From: a virus
Taxonomy: Duplodnaviria; Heunggongvirae; Uroviricota; Caudoviricetes
Length of the DNA: 64,000 bases
IMG/VR virus record: IMGVR_UViG_2724679538_000004
Location: 1-64,000 of that record
Direction: 5' to 3' (one strand)
The position numbers and the translations under genes were made by a program. Positions 3,819 through 60,655 of the stretch are shown piece after piece. Positions within the stretch are counted from its first letter, which is position 1, and every line of letters starts with the position of its first letter. The notes under the pieces are model-generated. The model was not told the DNA's origin, ran no database searches, and saw only the letters and a program-made list of their open reading frames with translations.

Positions 3819-4601
3819 GTGTCAATTACAAAAGTTCCTGGATGGATAGGATCATCAGCGGTTTCAGAAACAGGGCAACGTTGGATGAGTGCTGCCCGCA
3901 CCACAGTCCAATTGTCCGCAGCAGGAAATATGTCACAGATGGGTGGTAGGTCAAAAGAGATTTACTACTCAATAGGGGCTAATCACAATTATAACAAAGA
4001 CACATTAATATCATATTTACGCTCCGTTGGCTCTACACCTGTAGTAGTTACTATTACAGGGGATTTAGTTTCTATAAGCAGTACAGTCCCTTGTCTTGAC
4101 TTTCCGGGTGACTTATCAAACTCATATATTAACCTCGTAATTAATAGTGGAGTTACCGTATATGGACGAGGTGGTAACGGGGGTAACAAAAGTAATGGTG
4201 CTGCTGGGGGAACTGCCATAAATAATGGAATTGGGACTCGTTTACGTATTACAAACAATGGAGCTATAGCCGGTGGTGGTGGTGGCGGCGGTGCTACCTA
4301 TGTGAAATCAAGTCTTTCAGATGGAGTATATGGTGGTGGCGGCGGCAGACCATTTGGTACTCGTGGTGCTTCTTCTGGCCCCATGAGTTCAAATTCCACA
4401 GACGCTACTTTAACAGCGGCTGGTAAAGGTGCGGTGTCAAAGGGAACTGGTGGCGCAGGTAATGGTGGCAACGTGGGTGCCGCTGGCTCTAACGGATATG
4501 GTGGTGGGACAATGTATAATGGTGGTGCAGGGGGCAAAGCGGTGGCAGGTAGTGCGCCAACATGGATTTCAGTTGGGTCGATATATGGCGCTCGTGTGTA
4601 A
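3819..4601 (+). CDS. gp38-like glycine-rich tail fibre adhesin
   Basis: GTG start with RBS; N-terminus VPGWIGSSAVSETGQRWMS resembles T2-type gp38 (from memory); poly-Gly runs (GGGGGGG, GGGGG) separating variable segments. Confidence 0.65.
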   Translation: MSITKVPGWIGSSAVSETGQRWMSAARTTVQLSAAGNMSQMGGRSKEIYYSIGANHNYNKDTLISYLRSVGSTPVVVTITGDLVSISSTVPCLDFPGDLSNSYINLVINSGVTVYGRGGNGGNKSNGAAGGTAINNGIGTRLRITNNGAIAGGGGGGGATYVKSSLSDGVYGGGGGRPFGTRGASSGPMSSNSTDATLTAAGKGAVSKGTGGAGNGGNVGAAGSNGYGGGTMYNGGAGGKAVAGSAPTWISVGSIYGARV

Positions 4602-4612
4602 GTACTTACCTA
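4597..4612. repeat. motif A copy
   Basis: TGTAAGTACTTACCTA overlapping stop codon of gp38-like gene. Confidence 0.7.
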
Positions 4613-4675
4613 CAAAAATGGAAAGAATTGTGGTATAAATTCGCCATCCCGATTTGACTTTTCATGGAGGAAAAC

Positions 4676-4999
4676 ATGTCGAACGAGATGGCGGGAGTTA
4701 CAACTGAACAGGTTGAACGCATCGCCTCAATCGTTGCTCGGGAAGTCGTAGGCAAATTAGGTAAAGAAATACGCGAGGAAATTGGCCAGGAGGTCAACGA
4801 CCAGCTTAAAACCTATTTTGGCGATATGACACCAGCGCAACACAGTATCCAACACTCCAACCTGGACAAGCTTCTTAATCGGCTGGATTCAATTTCAAGC
4901 GGCTTCTTTGGCGGCGTTATTTCAAAAATAACGTCGTTCCTTATTACCGCTCTGATTTTGGGTATTGCTGCTTATGGCGTCAAAAATGGACTGAAATAA
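4676..4999 (+). CDS. membrane protein with C-terminal TM helix; possible holin-like lysis protein
   Basis: GGAGG RBS 5 nt upstream of ATG 4676; single C-terminal hydrophobic helix ITSFLITALILGIAAYGV; position at head of lysis cassette. Confidence 0.35.
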   Translation: MSNEMAGVTTEQVERIASIVAREVVGKLGKEIREEIGQEVNDQLKTYFGDMTPAQHSIQHSNLDKLLNRLDSISSGFFGGVISKITSFLITALILGIAAYGVKNGLK

Positions 5000-5012
5000 C
5001 AGGAGATCAAGG

Positions 5013-5705
5013 ATGAACACTCCAAGAGGTATTCGAAACAACAACCCAGGCAACCTTGATAAAGGTTCTCCGTGGCAAGGTTTAGTTGATAATCCGAATG
5101 AGCCGCGCTTTTGCACTTTCATAGATCCTGTTTGGGGGATTCGTGCATTAGCAGTGACGCTTATCACCTACCACGACAAACGTCGGGCTAAGGACGGTTC
5201 CAGCATAGATACTATCCGTGAAGTTATCGAACGCTGGGCGCCGCCTTCCGAAAACAATACGGCCGCATATGTGAAGGAAGTATCGAAAGCAGTAGGCGTT
5301 GATCCAGATACGGTTATCAACTTGCACAGGTACGACACTCTGCGTCCGCTGGTTGAGGCCATTATTCGTCATGAAAATGGCCGCGGTCCTCTCAAGACGA
5401 AAAATACCTGGTATTCAAATGAGGTCATCAACGAAGGCCTTCGTAGAGCTGGTGTTGTGAAGCCAGTGACGGCAGTTACCACTGTTCCAGTCACTAAAGA
5501 GACTGCCGGTGCTACAGTCACCGCAGGCATTGGCCTTGCACAGATTGCTGATGTTATGCCTCAAGTTTCTGCCGCAATGGACAAAGCTCAAGGCCATATC
5601 TCAAGTGGAGATACGGTACGCATCATTTTTGGCGTAGCTACCATCCTTGTGGCGGCGTTCATTGCCTGGTCCCAGGTTCGCAAGCATCAAAATGGATTAG
5701 TGTAA
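5013..5705 (+). CDS. lysis-cassette protein with NNNPGNL motif and C-terminal TM anchor (possible endolysin)
   Basis: AGGAG RBS; conserved-looking N-terminal RNNNPGNLDKGSPWQG; C-terminal hydrophobic segment; immediately upstream of spanins. Confidence 0.35.
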   Translation: MNTPRGIRNNNPGNLDKGSPWQGLVDNPNEPRFCTFIDPVWGIRALAVTLITYHDKRRAKDGSSIDTIREVIERWAPPSENNTAAYVKEVSKAVGVDPDTVINLHRYDTLRPLVEAIIRHENGRGPLKTKNTWYSNEVINEGLRRAGVVKPVTAVTTVPVTKETAGATVTAGIGLAQIADVMPQVSAAMDKAQGHISSGDTVRIIFGVATILVAAFIAWSQVRKHQNGLV

Positions 5706-5707
5706 GT

Positions 5708-5959
5708 ATGTTTGGCGGCCTGTTTTTCAAAGTTAAATCCGCTTTGTTCACTCTGGCCGCCGTCATTCTCGTCCTTGTCGGCGCATATTCCTATGGTGGG
5801 TATATGGTCAGGCGAAGTATGGAAGAGAAAGAACGGCGGGAAGATAACAAACGTCTTCAAAGCACAGTGGAAGTGGTGAATGAGACGAACAGTCAAATAC
5901 GTCAGAAAGATGCTTCTGCCGTTCATCGTGAGCTGCATGATAAGTGGTTGCGTCATTAA
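5708..5959 (+). CDS. i-spanin (Rz-like inner membrane spanin)
   Basis: N-terminal TM helix then charged coiled-coil-like region; o-spanin ORF begins inside its 3' end in another frame. Confidence 0.7.
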   Translation: MFGGLFFKVKSALFTLAAVILVLVGAYSYGGYMVRRSMEEKERREDNKRLQSTVEVVNETNSQIRQKDASAVHRELHDKWLRH

Positions 5960-6095
5960 GCCACAAACCACCAGCGTGTTGTTCTGCGATGGCGCTGAGC
6001 CTATATATATCAGCAATGACGATGTAATGACCGAAGAAACCGAACGCCAAATCCTTTTTCACAATACGATGGGAGAGAGAGTTTGCGGTTGGTGA
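5910..6095 (+). CDS. o-spanin (Rz1-like outer membrane lipoprotein)
   Basis: Signal peptide MLLPFIVSCMISGC with lipobox ISGC; overlaps i-spanin out of frame. Confidence 0.7.
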   Translation: MLLPFIVSCMISGCVIKPQTTSVLFCDGAEPIYISNDDVMTEETERQILFHNTMGERVCGW

Positions 6096-6131
6096 GGTTG
6101 ACAACTCCCCTCAATGAGGGGAGTTACAATT

Positions 6132-6650
6132 TTATTCGAACAATTTTTCGATAGATTTTGTTGGATAGAACAAAGAACGCTCGTTGTTACCAACAAGCTG
6201 AATAAAGCCTAAACTTTTATAAAAAGCCCTGGCATTATCATTCAACGCCTCAACGAAAAGTCCATGAATACCTACAGCAAGAGAGGCATTGTACACAACG
6301 CGCATTGCATGTGTTACAAGCATTGAGCCAAGTCCTTGACCTTGAAGAGATTTGTCTAAAGCCAGCCTGCCTAAAGTGACACTTGGTACATTCCGATAAG
6401 GCACTTTCTTTTGTTGACTCCTTGAAGGTAAGGCCTCCTTCTCAAAGCAGCTGCCTGACAAAGTGTAATAGCCTAATACTCTTGGCTTTTCTTCTTTGGT
6501 GCAAAGGACATAAGCCCGAAGAATTTTGCCCTCATGCTGTCTTTTCAGGTGGTTGGTTAAAAATGCGTTTAGTGACTCTTCGCCGCAATCAAAACCATTC
6601 AGATCATAATCTTTCTCTCCAGAGAAAATCTCTATCGTCGTATTGCCCAC
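6132..6650 (-). CDS. GNAT acetyltransferase toxin (TacT/KacT-like)
   Basis: 172 aa, GNAT-like motifs (QGQGLG); immediately downstream of DUF1778-like antitoxin in same operon. Confidence 0.7.
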   Translation of the reverse strand: MGNTTIEIFSGEKDYDLNGFDCGEESLNAFLTNHLKRQHEGKILRAYVLCTKEEKPRVLGYYTLSGSCFEKEALPSRSQQKKVPYRNVPSVTLGRLALDKSLQGQGLGSMLVTHAMRVVYNASLAVGIHGLFVEALNDNARAFYKSLGFIQLVGNNERSLFYPTKSIEKLFE

Positions 6651-9332: not shown

Positions 9333-9352
9333 ATAAGTAAGTAGTTACCTAT
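9333..9352. repeat. motif A copy
   Basis: ATAAGTAAGTAGTTACCTAT abutting ATG 9351. Confidence 0.7.
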
Positions 9353-34778: not shown

Positions 34779-34805
34779 AGATAATAAGTAAGTACTGATC
34801 TATTA
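34779..34805. repeat. motif A copy
   Basis: AGATAATAAGTAAGTACTGATCTATTA. Confidence 0.6.
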
Positions 34806-37163: not shown

Positions 37164-38237
37164 ATGGCAAAAGGAAAATCCCCACTGGCACTTGCTCTTA
37201 AAAAGAAAATCGGTAGCAACGATGAAATTCAAAAAGTAACCCATTGGATTGATACAGGCTTTCCCCCGTTAAACAAAGCTATTTCTGGTCGTTACGATGG
37301 TGGTTTCCCATGTGGTCGTATCGTCGAAGTATTTGGTCCTCCAAGTGCAGGGAAAACGTTCCTTGCAACAGCAGCGATGATCTCCGCTCAAAAACAAGAT
37401 GGTCTGGCGGTATTCCTCGATCATGAAAACAGTTTTGACGTTGGCCTGGCTGTAGCCAATGGCCTGAACGCAGATGAGGATGACGGTCAGTGGGTATACA
37501 AGCAGCCAGATACCTTCGAAGACTCTGTAGAGTTGATCGGCACTATTCTTAAATTGGTTCGTGATGAAGAGCTTATCCCTGAATCAGCGCCTATCTGTAT
37601 CGTGGCTGACTCCCTTGCGTCTATGGTTCCGAACTCCAAAGCCGAGAAGTTCGAAAAGATGGCAGAAGGCACTGCCAAAGACAAAGATCAGCTAAACATG
37701 AACGACAATACGGCACTGGCTCGTGCGACGAGTGCGAACTTCCCTACTCTGGCTTTGTGGGCACGCAAATACAACGCCTGCATCATCTTCTTGAATCAGG
37801 TTCGCACAAAAATCGGTGTAATGTTTGGCGACCCTACTACGTCACCAGGCGGCGATTCACCGAAGTTCTACGCTTCTGTACGTATCCGTCTTGGTGCATC
37901 GGTGATGAAGGATGGTAAAGAGAAGATCGGCCAGGACGTAGGCGCAGAGTGCATCAAAAACAAAGTCGCACCACCGTATGGCAAATGTACCTGGAAATTC
38001 TACTTCGATCCTACTCGTGGCCTCGACGTTATCGAATCGCTCGTCGAGTACATGCTGGAAGAAGGATACCTGCCAAAGAACGCCAGCGGGCGAGTTGAAA
38101 TTGGTGACAAGAAATACACCAAATCGCAGATCGTCGAGATGTATCGGGAGAAGCCATTAGCAGAAATCATTTCTGCGTTACAGGCGATAGATGACCGACG
38201 AGAGAAGACATCACCAACAGAAGAACTAGAAGATTAA
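37164..38237 (+). CDS. recA: RecA-like recombinase
   Basis: Walker A GPPSAGKT; FLNQVRTKIGVMFGDPTTSPGG..KFYASVR matches RecA core. Confidence 0.85.
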   Translation: MAKGKSPLALALKKKIGSNDEIQKVTHWIDTGFPPLNKAISGRYDGGFPCGRIVEVFGPPSAGKTFLATAAMISAQKQDGLAVFLDHENSFDVGLAVANGLNADEDDGQWVYKQPDTFEDSVELIGTILKLVRDEELIPESAPICIVADSLASMVPNSKAEKFEKMAEGTAKDKDQLNMNDNTALARATSANFPTLALWARKYNACIIFLNQVRTKIGVMFGDPTTSPGGDSPKFYASVRIRLGASVMKDGKEKIGQDVGAECIKNKVAPPYGKCTWKFYFDPTRGLDVIESLVEYMLEEGYLPKNASGRVEIGDKKYTKSQIVEMYREKPLAEIISALQAIDDRREKTSPTEELED

Positions 38238-38242
38238 TTATC

Positions 38243-38268
38243 AGGCGTCCAAACGGACGCCTTTTTTG
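38243..38268 (+). terminator. rho-independent terminator (GGCGTC family)
   Basis: AGGCGTCC-aaac-GGACGCCT TTTTTG. Confidence 0.75.
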
Positions 38269-38282
38269 TATGTTGAAAATGT

Positions 38283-38298
38283 ATAAGTACTTACTTAT
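38283..38298. repeat. motif A copy
   Basis: ATAAGTACTTACTTAT. Confidence 0.6.
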
Positions 38299-38330
38299 TA
38301 TTAGCACACAATAACCACATAGGAAAACAC

Positions 38331-38531
38331 ATGATCAAACTCTATCTTATGGCAGTAGTTACAGGTCTATCTGTAGTTTTCATCTACTGTTTGCTGGTTC
38401 CGTCGCTGATCTCTGCTAAAAGCGACATTGCCGTAATGCTTGGAATCATCGTTGCTTTTGGTGCTCCTGTGATCGGGTTTATTGCAGGTCGTAAGTTTCT
38501 AAAGTCACTCATCAATTCGAAGGAGAAGTAA
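38331..38531 (+). CDS. small two-TM membrane protein (NfeD-like partner?)
   Basis: 66 aa, two hydrophobic helices; 4 bp upstream of SPFH gene. Confidence 0.45.
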   Translation: MIKLYLMAVVTGLSVVFIYCLLVPSLISAKSDIAVMLGIIVAFGAPVIGFIAGRKFLKSLINSKEK

Positions 38532-38534
38532 GTA

Positions 38535-39365
38535 ATGAAGAAAGGTTTACTGGCAGTGATCGTGGCCGCTGTTTGCACAATGGGTCTTACTGGCTGTGAT
38601 CGCGTAGAGCCAGGATACGTTGGCATCAAGGTAAACAAATTAGGTGAAGACAAAGGGATTGGTGAAGTAGTTGGTGTTGGTCGCCAATGGACAGGTCTTA
38701 ACACCGAACTTTACGTATTCCCGACCTTCAAACAAATGAAGACCTACGACGAGCCGTTCACATTCCAGATGAGTGACGGTACTGCTATTGGTCACAAAAT
38801 TGGCGTTGCGTATCTGGTTAATCGTGACAAGGTAACGACGGTGTTCCAGACCTATCGCAAAGGCGTAGACGATATCACCGAATCAGATCTGCGTCAGAAA
38901 ATTGCCGACTCTCTAAACCGTTTGGCCAGCCGTATGACCACTGACGCATTTATCGACGGTGGTAAGGCACAATTGCTGGACAACGCACTGAAAGATATTC
39001 AGAAAGAGATGTCTCCGGTTGGTATTGAGGTACTGAGCCTGTCATGGGTTGGAAAGCCTGATTACCCAAAAACCGTCATAGAATCTATCAACGCCAAAGT
39101 AACGGCTAACCAGCGTACTCTGCAACGTCAGCAGGAAGTAGAACAACGTAAAGCTGAGGCGAATATGCTGCGTGAACAGGCTAATGGTGAAGCTGATGCT
39201 ATCCGTGCTCGTGCGCAGGCAGAAGCAGACGCCATTCGTCTGCGCGGTGAAGCTCTGCGTCAGAACCCTAACGTTATGGAACTGGAAGCCATCAATAAAT
39301 GGAATGGTCAGTTACCGCAGTACATGACTCAAGGCGCTAACACTCCTTTCATTACAGTGAAATAA
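38535..39365 (+). CDS. SPFH/band-7 domain lipoprotein
   Basis: Lipobox LTGC; SPFH-like core and C-terminal coiled coil rich in QRQQEVEQRKAEA. Confidence 0.6.
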   Translation: MKKGLLAVIVAAVCTMGLTGCDRVEPGYVGIKVNKLGEDKGIGEVVGVGRQWTGLNTELYVFPTFKQMKTYDEPFTFQMSDGTAIGHKIGVAYLVNRDKVTTVFQTYRKGVDDITESDLRQKIADSLNRLASRMTTDAFIDGGKAQLLDNALKDIQKEMSPVGIEVLSLSWVGKPDYPKTVIESINAKVTANQRTLQRQQEVEQRKAEANMLREQANGEADAIRARAQAEADAIRLRGEALRQNPNVMELEAINKWNGQLPQYMTQGANTPFITVK

Positions 39366-39383
39366 CTCTACTTAAGAAGATCA

Positions 39384-39409
39384 GGCGTCCAGTTGGACGC
39401 CGTTTTTTT
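39384..39409 (+). terminator. rho-independent terminator (GGCGTC family)
   Basis: GGCGTCC-agtt-GGACGCC GTTTTTTT. Confidence 0.75.
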
Positions 39410-39428
39410 GTTGTTATTATCACCATCA

Positions 39429-39448
39429 AGAAAACAATTTGTTTAAAA
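39429..39448. promoter_or_regulatory. motif B element
   Basis: AGAAAACAATTTGTTTAAAA. Confidence 0.5.
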
Positions 39449-39461
39449 GGAGAAGTAAACC

Positions 39462-39887
39462 GTGACAGCAATTAAGAAACTCTACGATGCCGCAAACGCA
39501 GCTCTGGATGTTATTGATGATGAAGTATCAAAAGGCTTTCCTGAACCTGATTGGGCGCATCAGCTACGAAACGCTATAGCTGAAATGAGTCCTCCAGAGC
39601 CAACGCCTGACGAGGCTGACTGGCAGCGATTCATCCGTATGTACGCTGAGGAAATCGGACCAACGCCAACGGCGGAACAAGCAATGCTACTGAAATACTT
39701 TAAAGAGGCTGGGGAAGATTTGCCAATCGACGAATCGGCACACTGGTTTCACTGCGCATGGCGCAAGTACGACGTGATCTACACCCGTGGAATGGGCAGT
39801 AAAGATATGGTTGTGTGGCATCTTCTACATATAGATAGAGCCGTTGATAACGTAATCGAAAAGTTCTTCCCTAATGAAGAAGATTGA
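39462..39887 (+). CDS. hypothetical protein
   Basis: 141 aa, GTG start after GGAGAAG. Confidence 0.4.
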   Translation: MTAIKKLYDAANAALDVIDDEVSKGFPEPDWAHQLRNAIAEMSPPEPTPDEADWQRFIRMYAEEIGPTPTAEQAMLLKYFKEAGEDLPIDESAHWFHCAWRKYDVIYTRGMGSKDMVVWHLLHIDRAVDNVIEKFFPNEED

Positions 39888-40217: not shown

Positions 40218-40432
40218 ATTTACACTACGATATATATAAGTTAGCATTTACCTATCATGAAGATATATTTAGAAGCCATCTTGCTTATATTATCAACAAT
40301 GTTTGTCTTGGATTGTATGTTTACAGGTGTAATCCGCAGCGTTCTTTCCCCTGTCAACGAAGTAGTAATCAATTCGTTGGCCGTTGTACTCCTCTTCAAT
40401 TCTGCTTTTAAGGTGATTTACGAGGTAGCTGC

Positions 40433-40768
40433 GTGAAGGCGATAACTTTCTCACTAGTGTTTCTATCATCTTTGGTAATGGCGGATACCTCTGTTTATGA
40501 GTGCGATATGTCAGTTGCCAGTATCAACAAAGGCGCGATCACCAACATCACAAAGGCGCCATATGGCGCAATGGTAGTGGACAGCGGTGACCAGTTTTAC
40601 GTCCTTCGTGATGATCGTGTTTTGTCATCTCCTCATCTTTCGGATCGGAATGGCAAACTGACCGGAGTAGGAGAAGACCACTTCACATACAACAAATACC
40701 AGGGCTTTTATGGCATTCACGCTTCTACAAAAAGCTACCTTTTCGATGACTGCAAGGAGATTGGATAA
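40433..40768 (+). CDS. hypothetical secreted protein
   Basis: N-terminal signal peptide MKAITFSLVFLSSLVMA. Confidence 0.45.
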   Translation: MKAITFSLVFLSSLVMADTSVYECDMSVASINKGAITNITKAPYGAMVVDSGDQFYVLRDDRVLSSPHLSDRNGKLTGVGEDHFTYNKYQGFYGIHASTKSYLFDDCKEIG

Positions 40769-40980
40769 TGGCGGTGACACTGGCAGGTCTGGAAATCGAG
40801 AAAACAAGCGGATACTGGCGTTCCAAAGGATTCAAAAAAGCCAGCATACAAGATCGGCTAGAGCGTGAAGATGGATACATCATCCACCAGCGCAAGGAGT
40901 GGAGAATGGTTGATCCTGAGACTGGTAAGCTCGCAACGAAGGCTCAGACACTCTGGGGTTTATTGAAGAAAATTCACTGA
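40768..40980 (+). CDS. hypothetical protein
   Basis: 70 aa, ATG overlaps upstream stop. Confidence 0.35.
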   Translation: MAVTLAGLEIEKTSGYWRSKGFKKASIQDRLEREDGYIIHQRKEWRMVDPETGKLATKAQTLWGLLKKIH

Positions 40981-44035: not shown

Positions 44036-44057
44036 ATAGGTATATACTTACTTATAA
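44036..44057. repeat. motif A copy
   Basis: AATAGGTATATACTTACTTATA. Confidence 0.6.
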
Positions 44058-48700: not shown

Positions 48701-48720
48701 ATAGGTAAGTACTTATCTAT
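48701..48720. repeat. motif A copy
   Basis: ATAGGTAAGTACTTATCTAT. Confidence 0.75.
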
Positions 48721-53427: not shown

Positions 53428-53448
53428 AATAGGTATGTACTTATCTAT
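53428..53448. repeat. motif A copy
   Basis: AATAGGTATGTACTTATCTAT. Confidence 0.7.
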
Positions 53449-58404: not shown

Positions 58405-58425
58405 AATAGGTAAGTAGTTACCTAT
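58405..58425. repeat. motif A copy
   Basis: AATAGGTAAGTAGTTACCTAT. Confidence 0.75.
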
Positions 58426-60044: not shown

Positions 60045-60641
60045 ATGACGACGAAGACACCAGCCCGATCGCAAGCAAAAACTCTCAAAAAAGCCAAAAA
60101 CAAAAATTCTCCCCGCACCAATCACACAACGCCTGTCGTAGAGTTCAATCCCCAGCTTAAAACCGTGAAAATCTTTAGTGATGGCTCTTGCCTTAAAAAT
60201 CCGGGTGGTCCTGGCGGTTACGGTATCGTTCTCCAGTATCGTGGTGAGGAACGCGAGTTCTCAGATGGTTTTCATAGCACCACTAATAACCGCATGGAGA
60301 TGATGGGCGCACTCATCGGGCTGGAGCGTTTGAAATATCCATGCAACGTTATTTTGTACTCTGATAGCCAGTATCTGAAAAACGGCATGACACAGTGGAT
60401 GAAATGGTGGAAACGAAATGGATGGATGACTTCTGATAAAAAACCGGTAAAGAATGTTGATCTGTGGAAGCGTCTGGATGAGGCCGCAAGTCGACATAAT
60501 GTTCGCTGGAAGTGGGTTAAAGGCCATGCGGGACATCGTGAAAACGAGATCTGTGATCGTCTTGCTAAGATTGCAGCATTCACTGCCGCTGATACTCCAT
60601 TTAAAAAAGATTTAGGTTTTTTGAATCAAAATAGTAAGTAA
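60045..60641 (+). CDS. rnhA: ribonuclease H (RNase HI)
   Basis: [41 protein letters not shown] motifs; N-terminal basic extension; start set at ATG 60045 after CAGGAG. Confidence 0.85.
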
Positions 60642-60655
60642 GTATTTACCTATTA
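60630..60655. repeat. motif A copy
   Basis: AATAGTAAGTAAGTATTTACCTATTA overlapping RNase H stop. Confidence 0.65.

Follow-up and report, generated by a model that had tools for sequence, protein, structure and literature searches.

Organization of the cassette

[quoted passage not shown] Among recombination and replication genes it contains a cassette of two genes (Table 1). The upstream gene encodes a membrane hairpin of 66 amino acids, and the downstream gene encodes an SPFH lipoprotein of 276 amino acids. The TAA stop codon of the former is followed by three nucleotides (GTA) and the ATG codon of the latter, and both ORFs are in the same frame. The 4-bp spacing given in the first-pass annotation is correct, as the SPFH start lies 4 nt after the last base of the stop codon.

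Table 1. Features of the hairpin-SPFH cassette (coordinates of the 64-kb window).
Feature	Position	Strand	Details
Left terminator hairpin	38243..38262	+	AGGCGTCC-AAAC-GGACGCCT and a T run; ends the recA-like gene
Promoter, sigma-70-like	38273..38301	+	-35 TTGAAA, 17-nt spacer, -10 TATTAT; promoter scan
Operator-like inverted-repeat sites	38280-38297 (weaker site)		TAGGTAAGTACTTACCTA
Perfect 10-bp palindrome	38284-38293		TAAGTACTTA; within the promoter spacer
Membrane hairpin gene	38331-38531	+	ORF, ATG start, 66 aa; phrog_1130
SPFH lipoprotein gene	38535-39365	+	ORF, ATG start, 276 aa
Signal peptide and lipobox	38535..38597	+	MKKGLLAVIVAAVCTMGLTG|C21; Asp22 at +2, Arg23 at +3
SPFH / Band 7 domain, residues 23-209	38601..39161	+	Pfam PF01145, AlphaFold2, Foldseek
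CC1 helix (179-243), CC2 helix (245-255) and C-terminal tail	39069..39365	+	DSSP on the model
Right terminator hairpin	39384..39401	+	GGCGTCC-AGTT-GGACGCC, then GTTTTTTT

A terminator scan places an intrinsic terminator at each boundary of the cassette. The hairpin core common to both, GGCGTCC-N4-GGACGCC, has only two copies in the 64 kb (at 38243 and 39384), with 0.01 expected. Both flanking copies are also present in SSU5 and in 76 related loci, and the right terminator is conserved in Cyrano and SSU5. The candidate promoter has 10 of 12 matches in the promoter scan; Cyrano and SSU5 share its -35 box and the palindrome. An 18-bp inverted repeat, of which the palindrome forms the core, has 12 copies in the window against 0 expected, and the palindrome recurs at about a dozen other promoters of the window. 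Being common to other phage promoters, it argues for integration of the cassette into the phage programme. Judging by these signals, the two genes make up a transcription unit of their own at 38243-39401.

The orthologous genes of Cyrano, 56 and 57, show background or near-background levels in LB (log2 2.3-4.3) and reach 7.3-7.7 in the MB6 samples, taken as macrophages at 6 h, in which the flanking recA gene and gene 58 stay near 4 (PMC9928086, S1 Table). In macrophages the pair thus exceeds its flanks about 13-fold; read counts are low, and the data come from this one relative. Other Cyrano genes are also up in macrophages, and the pair is not among the morons listed by the authors (PMC9928086). 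Literature searches for time-course expression and for SSU5 operators gave nothing relevant. Given the shared palindrome, the silence in LB in Cyrano and the presence of the pair in lytic phages (see below), the cassette is read as a lytic-development gene set.

The two proteins and their genetic association

The N-terminus of the 276-aa protein, MKKGLLAVIVAAVCTMGLTG-C21-DRV, contains a canonical lipobox (LTG-C21), in agreement with the first-pass annotation, which had described a lipoprotein with an SPFH core and a coiled-coil tail. The SPFH fold, on whose prediction the first-pass annotation had made its proposal depend, is predicted with high confidence. The Pfam Band_7 profile PF01145 matches residues 23-209 with 106.5 bits (cut-off 23.6, E = 2.1e-30) and is covered from position 2 to position 176 of its 176 positions. 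The AlphaFold2 model, of a monomer, has a pLDDT of 90.6. In Foldseek searches of the PDB, its top matches are full-length subunits of cages, namely HflK/C, PHB1/2, erlin1/2, stomatin, flotillin and QmcA. HflK/HflC (7vhq), prohibitin (8rrh) and erlin (9vvj) are matched with E of about 1e-14 and probability 1.0, and the E-values for HflK/C, PHB1/2, erlin1/2 and stomatin range from 1e-14 to 1e-11 over 260-300 aligned columns. The tail is also present in the model, as a 65-residue helix (179-243) followed by a helix at 245-255 (DSSP assignment). Residues W256, G258 and P261 at the C-terminus are invariant in the alignment of homologues, and there is a weak Flotillin match at residues 208-266. CC1, CC2 and the tail of the model take the place of the cage wall and cap in the solved SPFH complexes.

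All of 51 diverse homologues have the lipobox cysteine, as do the fused forms (see below). Some family members lack the cysteine and are TM-anchored. Lipobox contexts were recovered from 120 close homologues, and about 94 of about 105 read C-D-R-V or C-D-R-A; in distant homologues, position +2 is mostly Ser or Thr. Asp at +2 is the enterobacterial signal for retention in the inner membrane, and the strong Lol-avoidance signal has been described without adjacent basic residues (PMC6469965). The mature phage protein has the conserved Asp at +2 but a basic Arg at the neighbouring position +3.

The 66-aa protein consists of a two-helix hairpin and nothing else. A Kyte-Doolittle scan finds hydrophobic helices at 1-31 and 32-54, and an AlphaFold model of a pseudo-fusion places the helices at 2-27 and 32-61 (block pLDDT 81-93), so the two transmembrane segments proposed in the first-pass annotation are seen by both methods. 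The predicted topology is N-in/C-in with a periplasmic turn. Lys and Arg residues are concentrated in the N- and C-terminal tails, and the TM2-TM3 linkers of the fused forms are basic. The turn, P24-S-L-I-S28-A-K-S, and G38 are conserved, with P24, S28 and G38 invariant in an alignment of 20 diverse members. The family was defined by a length of about 55-80 aa, two TM helices, the turn P-x-[LM]-[LIVM]-S and a Gly ten residues on, and the window protein has all these features. It matches phrog_1130 ("membrane protein", uncurated) over 66 of 66 positions (E = 1.3e-25). No Pfam family was found for this protein and 19 relatives. The lipoprotein matches phrog_200 ("lipoprotein", E = 5e-107) and begins at position 80 of this 379-position profile, consistent with the presence of fused members in phrog_200. 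Neither PHROG has an assigned function, and those resources do not connect the one family with the other. The defence models of PADLOC-DB 2.0 contain no family matching either protein at E up to 0.1.

DNA identity to the orthologous annotated genes, SSU5_061/062 and CYRAN_56/57, is 78-96%, the whole SSU5 locus being only 78% identical to the window. In SSU5 and Cyrano the 276-aa gene is already annotated as SPFH or stomatin-like; it can now be linked to a nameless small partner gene. Elsewhere the SPFH gene is frequently mislabelled in databases as "serine protease", "transposase fusion protein" or plain "lipoprotein". SPFH relatives were found in 426 of 50,697 phage records. Cassette-matching DNA is present in 314 of 5,426 complete E. 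coli genomes, and 195 of these 314 contain at least 80% of the cassette. The hairpin-SPFH pair also occurs in the P2-like phage P88, the N4-like Erwinia phage S6 and the rV5-like Proteus phage Mydo. The N4-like and rV5-like carriers are strictly lytic, and strictly lytic carriers include phages of plant and environmental bacteria. Recurrence of the same pair across very divergent phage DNA means that this pair of ORFs is not due to chance.

Distant loci were gathered from viral contigs, with single representatives as queries. Of 82 distinct phage loci, at least 60 have the hairpin ORF directly upstream of the SPFH gene (at least 20 bits). In about 12 further loci this place is taken by a diverged ORF that likewise encodes two helices and the turn, and in one locus the hairpin partner is downstream of the SPFH gene. 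Apart from this single locus, the best non-adjacent hairpin match across all loci scores 12.6 bits. The partner is not universal: it is absent from the FelixO1-like phage phiEa21-4 and the Bruynoghevirus PaP4, and in Caulobacter phage Karma a different multi-helix protein is encoded upstream of the SPFH gene.

An N-terminal extension with at least two hydrophobic segments was found in 18 of 142 full-length SPFH representatives. At least 17 distant homologues carry the hairpin as an N-terminal part of the SPFH protein itself, so that the hairpin, a third transmembrane helix and the SPFH domain form one polypeptide. Two of the fused ORFs were checked on their contigs; they translate to the query and have phage-like surroundings. 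An HMM trained solely on the N-terminal parts of 17 fused homologues recognizes the stand-alone proteins, with 37.3 bits for the 66-aa protein of the window, 54 for SSU5_061 and 29 for the upstream ORF of P88. The best of 1000 shuffled sequences scores 12.8 bits, and the best other ORF of the window, 7.8. Judged by gene order and fusion, the 66-aa hairpin is a conserved, sometimes fused, partner of the SPFH lipoprotein, and we infer physical contact between the two proteins. Programmed readthrough of the single TAA codon between the in-frame ORFs was also considered; it is unsupported, as in P88-type loci the two ORFs overlap out of frame (ATGA).

A candidate periplasm-facing scaffold

For SPFH cages, structures have recently become available (HflK/C, prohibitin, erlin, stomatin, flotillin), and the effect of the cages on the enclosed membrane is debated. 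We believe that the phage-plasmid transcription unit probably encodes a two-part SPFH scaffold that faces the periplasm on the inner membrane. The 276-aa protein would be exported and lipid-modified at Cys21, which would place its SPFH domain on the periplasmic face of the inner membrane. The SPFH proteins would then assemble via the CC1 and CC2 helices into a ring or cage similar to those of HflK/C, prohibitin and erlin, with about 20-24 subunits expected. Such oligomerization is expected by analogy, being extrapolated from relatives that are only about 17% identical. A relationship between CC1 length and subunit number has been published (y = 0.1782x + 10.22; PMC12624060), and its extrapolation to the 65-aa CC1 of the phage protein suggests about 22 subunits.

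Both ends of the hairpin would be cytoplasmic, with the conserved P-x-L-x-S-A-x-S turn at the periplasmic surface. As a dedicated partner, the hairpin would most likely supply the transmembrane part missing from the lipid-anchored SPFH protein. The complex would fence off or organize a patch of the inner membrane from the periplasmic side, thereby controlling a membrane client. We infer the retention in the inner membrane, the size of the oligomer and the client of the complex.

Among the possible roles we rank highest the protection or occupation of the inner membrane, for example exclusion of superinfecting DNA or stabilization of the membrane until lysis. HflK/C-like control of FtsH is a possible role of the second rank, and lysogenic conversion or virulence, of the third. 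A broader and rather speculative suggestion is that many phages, both lytic and temperate, build SPFH cages on the periplasmic face, with a hairpin subunit replacing NfeD and a client sealed or captured inside. The client might be FtsH, a stress sensor or the route by which competing phage DNA crosses the inner membrane. In this view, the invariant lipobox cysteine of the fused homologues suggests that Lgt/LspA processing cuts their three-helix precursor into the same two parts, which, if true, would be an unusual internal maturation of a lipoprotein.

Alternative readings and known systems

NfeD proteins are defined by a C-terminal OB-fold partner-binding domain, PF01957. The first-pass annotation had called the 66-aa protein NfeD-like and the gene order a stomatin-operon arrangement. 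If this were a true NfeD-stomatin operon, the 66-aa protein would be a minimal or truncated NfeD that assembles the SPFH protein, as YbbJ does for QmcA. The general layout is the same, in that one transcript covers the SPFH gene and a gene for a small membrane protein, and the 3-nt gap with shared promoter and terminator is a feature of NfeD-type operons, although it does not define NfeD by itself. NfeD-SPFH operons are widespread (PMC2636767), and the QmcA-YbbJ entry 8z5g, which is present in the PDB, surfaced in the fold search with the SPFH protein at rank 38. On the other hand, all homology tests were negative. PF01957 has no match in the 66-aa protein (E up to 0.1) or in 20 family members (E up to 1), whereas in the positive control it matches residues 94-148 of E. 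coli YbbJ with 46.8 bits. The hairpin family profile retrieves no NfeD chain from the PDB at E up to 10, and its hhalign comparison with YbbJ gives a probability of 2.1% over 11 columns. A protein of 66 aa has no room for an OB domain. Finally, QmcA-YbbJ protrudes into the cytoplasm (PMC13086221), whereas the SPFH protein of the window has a signal for export and lipidation. Thus NfeD homology is refuted, including any relation to YbbJ, and the NfeD reading as a whole is hardly credible. Of the stomatin-operon comparison, co-transcription of a small membrane partner with the SPFH gene stands; lack of NfeD homology and the exported SPFH domain make the arrangement analogous, not homologous. Also very unlikely is a role in lysis control, in which the hairpin would act like a holin or antiholin and the SPFH protein would adjust the time of lysis; lysis timing was raised in the first-pass annotation. 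Small two-helix membrane proteins are indeed typical of holins. However, no holin family was matched in Pfam or PHROGs, the holin, endolysin and Rz/Rz1 genes of Cyrano (CYRAN_22-25) are about 30 kb away, the cassette is surrounded by recombination and replication genes, and fusion of the hairpin to the SPFH domain in many homologues is unlike a free pore-former. We have rejected this reading because of the gene position and the fusions.

Two further readings, both improbable, concern the location and the target of the SPFH protein. One is that it is a lipoprotein of the outer membrane or of vesicles, acting in receptor masking, as Llp of T5, or as a conversion factor for an animal host, with the hairpin needed only for export or release. 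In its favour, the Asp+2 retention signal may be weakened by the neighbouring Arg (+3), Ser or Thr occupies +2 in most distant homologues, and the two Cyrano genes are up inside macrophages. A prophage-encoded HflK/C-like protein, PM0222, is reported to occur in outer-membrane vesicles, to signal through TLR1/2 and to contribute to virulence (PMC9872710). At the same time, Asp+2 is kept in the great majority of the close enterobacterial homologues, and the fused and the Cys-less TM-anchored members necessarily reside in the inner membrane. Moreover, every solved SPFH cage sits on its anchoring membrane, and a virulence role leaves unexplained the pair in strictly lytic phages of plant and environmental bacteria. 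The other reading is that the pair is a phage copy of the HflK/C function, in which a periplasmic cage captures or insulates FtsH and, via altered turnover of FtsH substrates, as with lambda CII, biases the lysis-lysogeny or plasmid-maintenance decision. The closest structures are those of HflK and HflC, the predicted orientation agrees with theirs, and the only sequence matches in NCBIfam and the PDB are TIGR01932 (2.5e-7) and 7vhq_E (0.007). In HflK/C, the periplasmic domains of FtsH touch SPFH2 inside the cage (PMC12624060), and such a role has been suggested for the SPFH genes of Bruynoghevirus (PMC8540360). However, the phage protein scores far below the NCBIfam equivalog cut-offs of both HflC (TIGR01932, 29.8 bits with a cut-off of 134.4) and HflK (TIGR01933, 17.6 bits with a cut-off of 159.4). 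There is a single SPFH gene and no heteropair, and some phages with the pair, N4-like, rV5-like and others, are strictly lytic, so that there is no lysogeny for them to decide on.

Our literature search for the tested function of phage SPFH proteins yielded only remarks in genome descriptions, and no experiments were found on any member of the phage SPFH family of the window. The scaffold proposed above could be a useful model, since it is a compact, predicted homo-oligomeric, periplasm-facing SPFH system with one small partner, encoded by a mobile element. Its phenotype should be easy to score, for example as phage exclusion, lysis timing or stability of FtsH substrates.

The only experimentally studied prophage SPFH protein found in the literature search is PM0222 (Pmorf0222) of Pasteurella multocida C48-1. 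It is likewise phage-borne, is described as HflK/C-like and is reported to be a virulence factor. The SPFH-NfeD operons, QmcA-YbbJ, PH1511-PH1510, FloT-YuaF and YqiK-YqiJ, share the SPFH fold with the phage protein. In these operons, as in the phage pair, the SPFH gene is co-transcribed with a small membrane partner, stoichiometric in the operons and presumably in the phage pair, and sometimes fused or tightly coupled. The differences are that the phage partner has no OB-fold/PF01957 domain and no detectable relation to YbbJ, and that QmcA-YbbJ faces the cytoplasm, whereas the phage SPFH protein is predicted to be an exported lipoprotein. HflK/HflC of E. coli (SPFH3; 7vhq, 7wi3, 9cz2) have the full-length fold in common with the phage protein, from the anchor through SPFH1, SPFH2, CC1 and CC2 to the cap, at about 17% identity. 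Their SPFH domain is on the periplasmic side of the inner membrane, as predicted for the phage protein. However, HflK and HflC are a heteropair with N-terminal TM helices and have no small partner, whereas the phage system has one SPFH gene, a lipid anchor and a two-helix partner, either separate or fused.

Cassette structure and genomic context

The window, an SSU5-type phage-plasmid, shares 96.4% identity with the E. coli LF82 phage-plasmid Cyrano and 78.6% with Salmonella phage SSU5 over bases 38000-39600. Both ORFs described in the first-pass annotation are present, and their neighbours encode a 5'-3' exonuclease, a RecA-like recombinase, a DUF7238 protein and a Rep3-type RepA. The large gene is labelled "putative SPFH domain / band 7 protein" in SSU5 and "Stomatin-like integral membrane protein" in Cyrano. 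Thus the SPFH reading is right, but it was already known.

The cassette is bracketed exactly by two near-identical terminator hairpins, whose 7-bp stems are the same and whose loops differ. This pattern has exactly two copies in the 64 kb (0.01 expected). SSU5 and 76 related loci have the flanking pair as well; P88-type loci do not. The two genes may therefore have moved, or become fixed, as a terminator-bounded module.

The ATG of the SPFH gene follows the TAA stop of the small gene after three bases, in the same frame. The whole separation is TAA GTA (window 38529-38537), and one substitution in the stop codon would produce the fused architecture of distant homologues. However, the in-frame arrangement is probably a coincidence, as the spacing in SSU5 is the same but the genes in P88-type loci overlap out of frame.

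Two observations concern the neighbours. The RecA-like protein has 357 aa in the window and SSU5, and is annotated with 779 aa in Cyrano (locus positions 3899-6238); window residues 65-357 align with positions 487-779 of phrog_9666. Thus the Cyrano product contains about 420 extra residues, intein-like or from a homing element, inserted directly behind its Walker A motif; the window has no such insertion. One database protein (P0018, 303 aa, 98% identical over 82% of the query) contains Band_7 together with DUF7238, the domain of the gene just 3' of the cassette. It may be a true fusion, or the two genes were joined artificially by a frameshift or an assembly error.

Features of the cassette region and copies of the inverted repeat (window coordinates)
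Feature	Position	Strand	Description
RecA-like gene	37164-38237		
Left terminator hairpin	38244-38261		GGCGTCC-N4-GGACGCC, then T run; 69 nt upstream of the small gene start codon
Promoter-like site	between left terminator and small gene		TTGAAA-17 nt-TATTAT
TAGGTAAGTACTTACCTA, cassette copy	38280-38297		weaker variant: 4 mismatches, perfect core
Small (hairpin) gene	38331-38531	+	ORF, 66 aa; AGGA Shine-Dalgarno-like sequence upstream
SPFH gene	38535-39365	+	ORF, 276 aa; AAGGAG Shine-Dalgarno-like sequence upstream
Right terminator hairpin	39384-39401		GGCGTCC-N4-GGACGCC, then T run; 19 nt after the SPFH stop
DUF7238 gene	39462-39887		
Counterparts of CYRAN_60-62	about 40257-40980		
TAGGTAAGTACTTACCTA, other copies	304-321, 4595-4612, 9334-9351, 21507-21524, 24758-24775, 26088-26105, 34785-34802, 44037-44054, 48702-48719, 53430-53447, 58407-58424, 60635-60652		

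The SPFH lipoprotein and the small membrane protein

The large protein matches Pfam Band_7 (106.5 bits, E = 2.1e-30, residues 23-209) and phrog_200 "lipoprotein" (E = 5e-107). Its AlphaFold2 model (alignment of 51 diverse homologues, mean pLDDT 90.6) consists of a signal helix, a beta-rich SPFH1, an alpha/beta SPFH2, a 65-residue helix (179-243) and a second helix (245-255). Foldseek matched it full-length, with probability 1.0, to cage subunits in PDB, the top matches being HflK/HflC (7vhq, E = 1.6e-14), prohibitin (8rrh), erlin1/2 (9vvj), stomatin, flotillin and QmcA-YbbJ (8z5g). Thus the proposed SPFH core is confirmed, and the proposed tail corresponds to the two helices. Orthology with HflK or HflC was rejected (17.6 and 29.8 bits, cut-offs 159 and 134, respectively).

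The Pfam search did not find a protease domain in the large protein. Members of this SPFH lipoprotein family are frequently mislabelled as 'serine protease', 'putative serine protease', 'transposase fusion protein', 'transferase' or 'adhesin-adjacent lipoprotein'; examples are phage records with the SPFH protein, database proteins P0027 and P0088, and PaP4 gp18. The 'serine protease' label probably comes from the old COG name 'membrane protease subunit, stomatin/prohibitin homologue'.

The N-terminus MKKGLLAVIVAAVCTMGLTG-C21-DRV is a standard lipobox, in agreement with the predicted lipoprotein nature of the product. Its cysteine is shared by all 51 homologues, even those at 30% identity, and C-D-R-V or C-D-R-A occurs in about 94 of about 105 lipobox contexts recovered from close enterobacterial homologues. 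The enterobacterial inner-membrane retention signal is Asp at +2, in its strongest form without an adjacent basic residue (PMC6469965). Here Asp at +2 is adjoined by Arg at +3, and thus retention in the inner membrane is likely but not certain. Two kinds of variants occur in the family: in some members an uncleaved transmembrane helix takes the place of the lipobox, and in others a three-helix membrane domain is fused to the protein. Either kind points to an inner-membrane location and a periplasmic SPFH domain.

The small protein had been considered a two-TM, NfeD-like protein, and the gene pair a stomatin operon. The model indeed has two helices only, 2-27 and 32-61. The defining feature of NfeD is a C-terminal OB-fold partner-binding domain (PF01957). 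Pfam searches found no family in the 66-aa protein (E up to 0.1) and no NfeD in any of 20 diverse members of its family (E up to 1); YbbJ, the positive control, matched PF01957 with 46.8 bits (residues 94-148). The family profile retrieved no NfeD chain from PDB, although the QmcA-YbbJ entry 8z5g is there, as confirmed by its appearance in the fold search with the SPFH protein. The hhalign probability for the profile and E. coli YbbJ was 2.1%. Finally, QmcA-YbbJ protrudes into the cytoplasm (PMC13086221), whereas the phage SPFH protein is exported and would be on the opposite side. Thus NfeD homology was rejected, and the stomatin operon is acceptable only as a loose analogy.

A search of 1.84 billion representative proteins yielded 2,814 SPFH relatives. 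Among the best 142 full-length ones, 18, each of 320-390 aa, have an N-terminal extension with at least two hydrophobic segments before the lipobox cysteine. An HMM of the first 66 residues only, from 17 of these 18, recognizes the 66-aa protein (37.3 bits, E = 1.7e-10), its SSU5 counterpart SSU5_061 (54 bits) and the ORF upstream of the SPFH gene in P2-like phage P88 (29 bits); the best of 1000 shuffles scored 12.8 bits and the best other window ORF 7.8 bits. Two fused ORFs checked on contigs both translate to the query and have phage-like contexts. We consider the fusions true rather than gene-calling artefacts, as about half of them lack an internal Met before the third helix.

In a survey of 221 phage or viral loci, the partner (at least 20 bits) was immediately upstream in 60 of the 82 loci with distinct SPFH sequences, usually at 0-20 nt and often overlapping. 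About 12 further loci contain a diverged two-helix ORF that shares the turn (e.g. IPTMLNSS, LPALLSGS), and one has the partner downstream; this locus aside, the best match elsewhere in the surveyed loci was 12.6 bits. Judging by adjacency and natural fusions, the 66-aa protein is a dedicated partner of the SPFH lipoprotein. Its family has invariant P24, S28 and G38 and the motif G-x3-P-x-L-x-S-A-x-S-x2-A-V-x2-G. Lysines and arginines are clustered in the tails, which together with the motif indicates an N-in/C-in hairpin. The only conserved polar segment would then be at the periplasmic surface, where the lipid-anchored SPFH1 would sit.

Candidate regulation and expression

The spacer of the promoter-like site contains a perfect palindrome TAAGTACTTA, the core of an 18-bp inverted repeat TAGGTAAGTACTTACCTA; the -35 box and the spacer are kept in SSU5. 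The repeat has 12 copies in the window with at most three mismatches (0 expected), and its 10-bp core has 17 with at most one mismatch (1.45 expected). Nearly all copies are intergenic, upstream of plus-strand genes including those for SSB, SbcD, ribonucleotide reductase and ThyX. A -35-like hexamer lies directly 5' of each copy, and the right arm of the repeat extends into a TATnAT -10 box. From the sequence, these sites look like a regulon of operator-bearing promoters for a dimeric phage regulator, and can be likened to the dispersed C1 operators of P1. No description of such a regulon in SSU5-type elements was found in the literature.

Expression values (log2(FPKM+5)) are available for LF82/Cyrano, a 96%-identical relative, with low counts (PMC9928086, S1 Table; MB6 samples taken as macrophage 6 h). 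The hairpin gene CYRAN_56 had 2.32 / 2.32 (no reads) in stationary LB and 7.6 / 7.7 in MB6; the SPFH gene CYRAN_57 had 4.3 / 3.0 and 7.25 / 7.4, respectively; the flanking recA and CYRAN_58 were at about 4 in MB6. Thus, as far as low counts from a relative go, the pair can be transcribed independently of its flanks and is not a constitutively expressed lysogenic-conversion gene. It is not among the morons listed by the authors (PMC9928086). CYRAN_60-62, three small genes a short distance downstream of the cassette region that include a P1 Cra-like gene, rose from background to 8.3-9.0 in macrophages at 6 h, exceeding the rise of the pair, and several toxin-antitoxin genes of Cyrano were also strongly induced (PMC9928086).

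Distribution and possible role

The SPFH protein was found by tblastn in 426 of 50,697 phage records. Temperate carriers include phiP27, Stx2a phages, P1-like RCS47, P88 and Burkholderia phi644-2. Lytic ones include N4-like Schitoviridae, rV5-like Vequintavirinae, FelixO1-like phiEa21-4, Bruynoghevirus, phiCbK-like phages, Lak megaphages and crAss-like phages. Erwinia phage S6 (N4-like) encodes the hairpin partner as gp044 (64 bits), and so does Proteus phage Mydo as gp156 (81 bits); in Mydo one small gene separates it from the SPFH gene. The partner is absent from phiEa21-4 and PaP4. Where the hairpin family is absent, another small membrane protein is often found upstream, which may be a non-homologous partner replacement. 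In PaP4 this position is occupied by gp17 (locus positions 1225-1443), a 72-aa protein with one C-terminal helix; in Caulobacter phage Karma, gp183 (1155-1505), a 116-aa multi-helix protein of another family, overlaps the SPFH start. Of 5,426 complete E. coli genomes, 314 contain cassette-matching DNA, 195 of them at least 80% of the cassette; the matching places number 226 on plasmids and 101 on chromosomes.

No functional study of this phage SPFH family was found, and the reason for the presence of an SPFH gene in a phage genome was stated to remain unclear (PMC13239085). What is new here is the link of the hairpin family to the SPFH subfamily, the predicted periplasm-facing SPFH protein, the wide occurrence of the pair in lytic phages, and the operator-like palindrome, which suggests how the pair may be regulated. 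With the fold, the lipobox, the conservation and fusion of the partner and the transcription-unit boundaries established, a mechanism may be proposed. The SPFH protein would assemble into a ring or cage at the inner membrane, facing the periplasm. The published regression of subunit number on CC1 helix length, y = 0.1782x + 10.22 (PMC12624060), extrapolated to the 65-residue helix, gives about 22 subunits. The hairpin would supply the transmembrane wall missing from the lipid-anchored protein, at 1:1 as in the fused forms, and the assembly may fence or capture an inner-membrane client.

The favoured role is in lytic growth, where the pair might, for example, keep superinfecting DNA from crossing the inner membrane or stabilise the membrane, since the pair occurs in strictly lytic phages and its expression is apparently tied to the phage promoter family. 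Third comes a virulence role, as has been reported for Pasteurella PM0222. Between these stands control of FtsH in the manner of HflK/C, which have the same orientation as predicted for the phage protein, with a periplasmic SPFH domain at the inner membrane.
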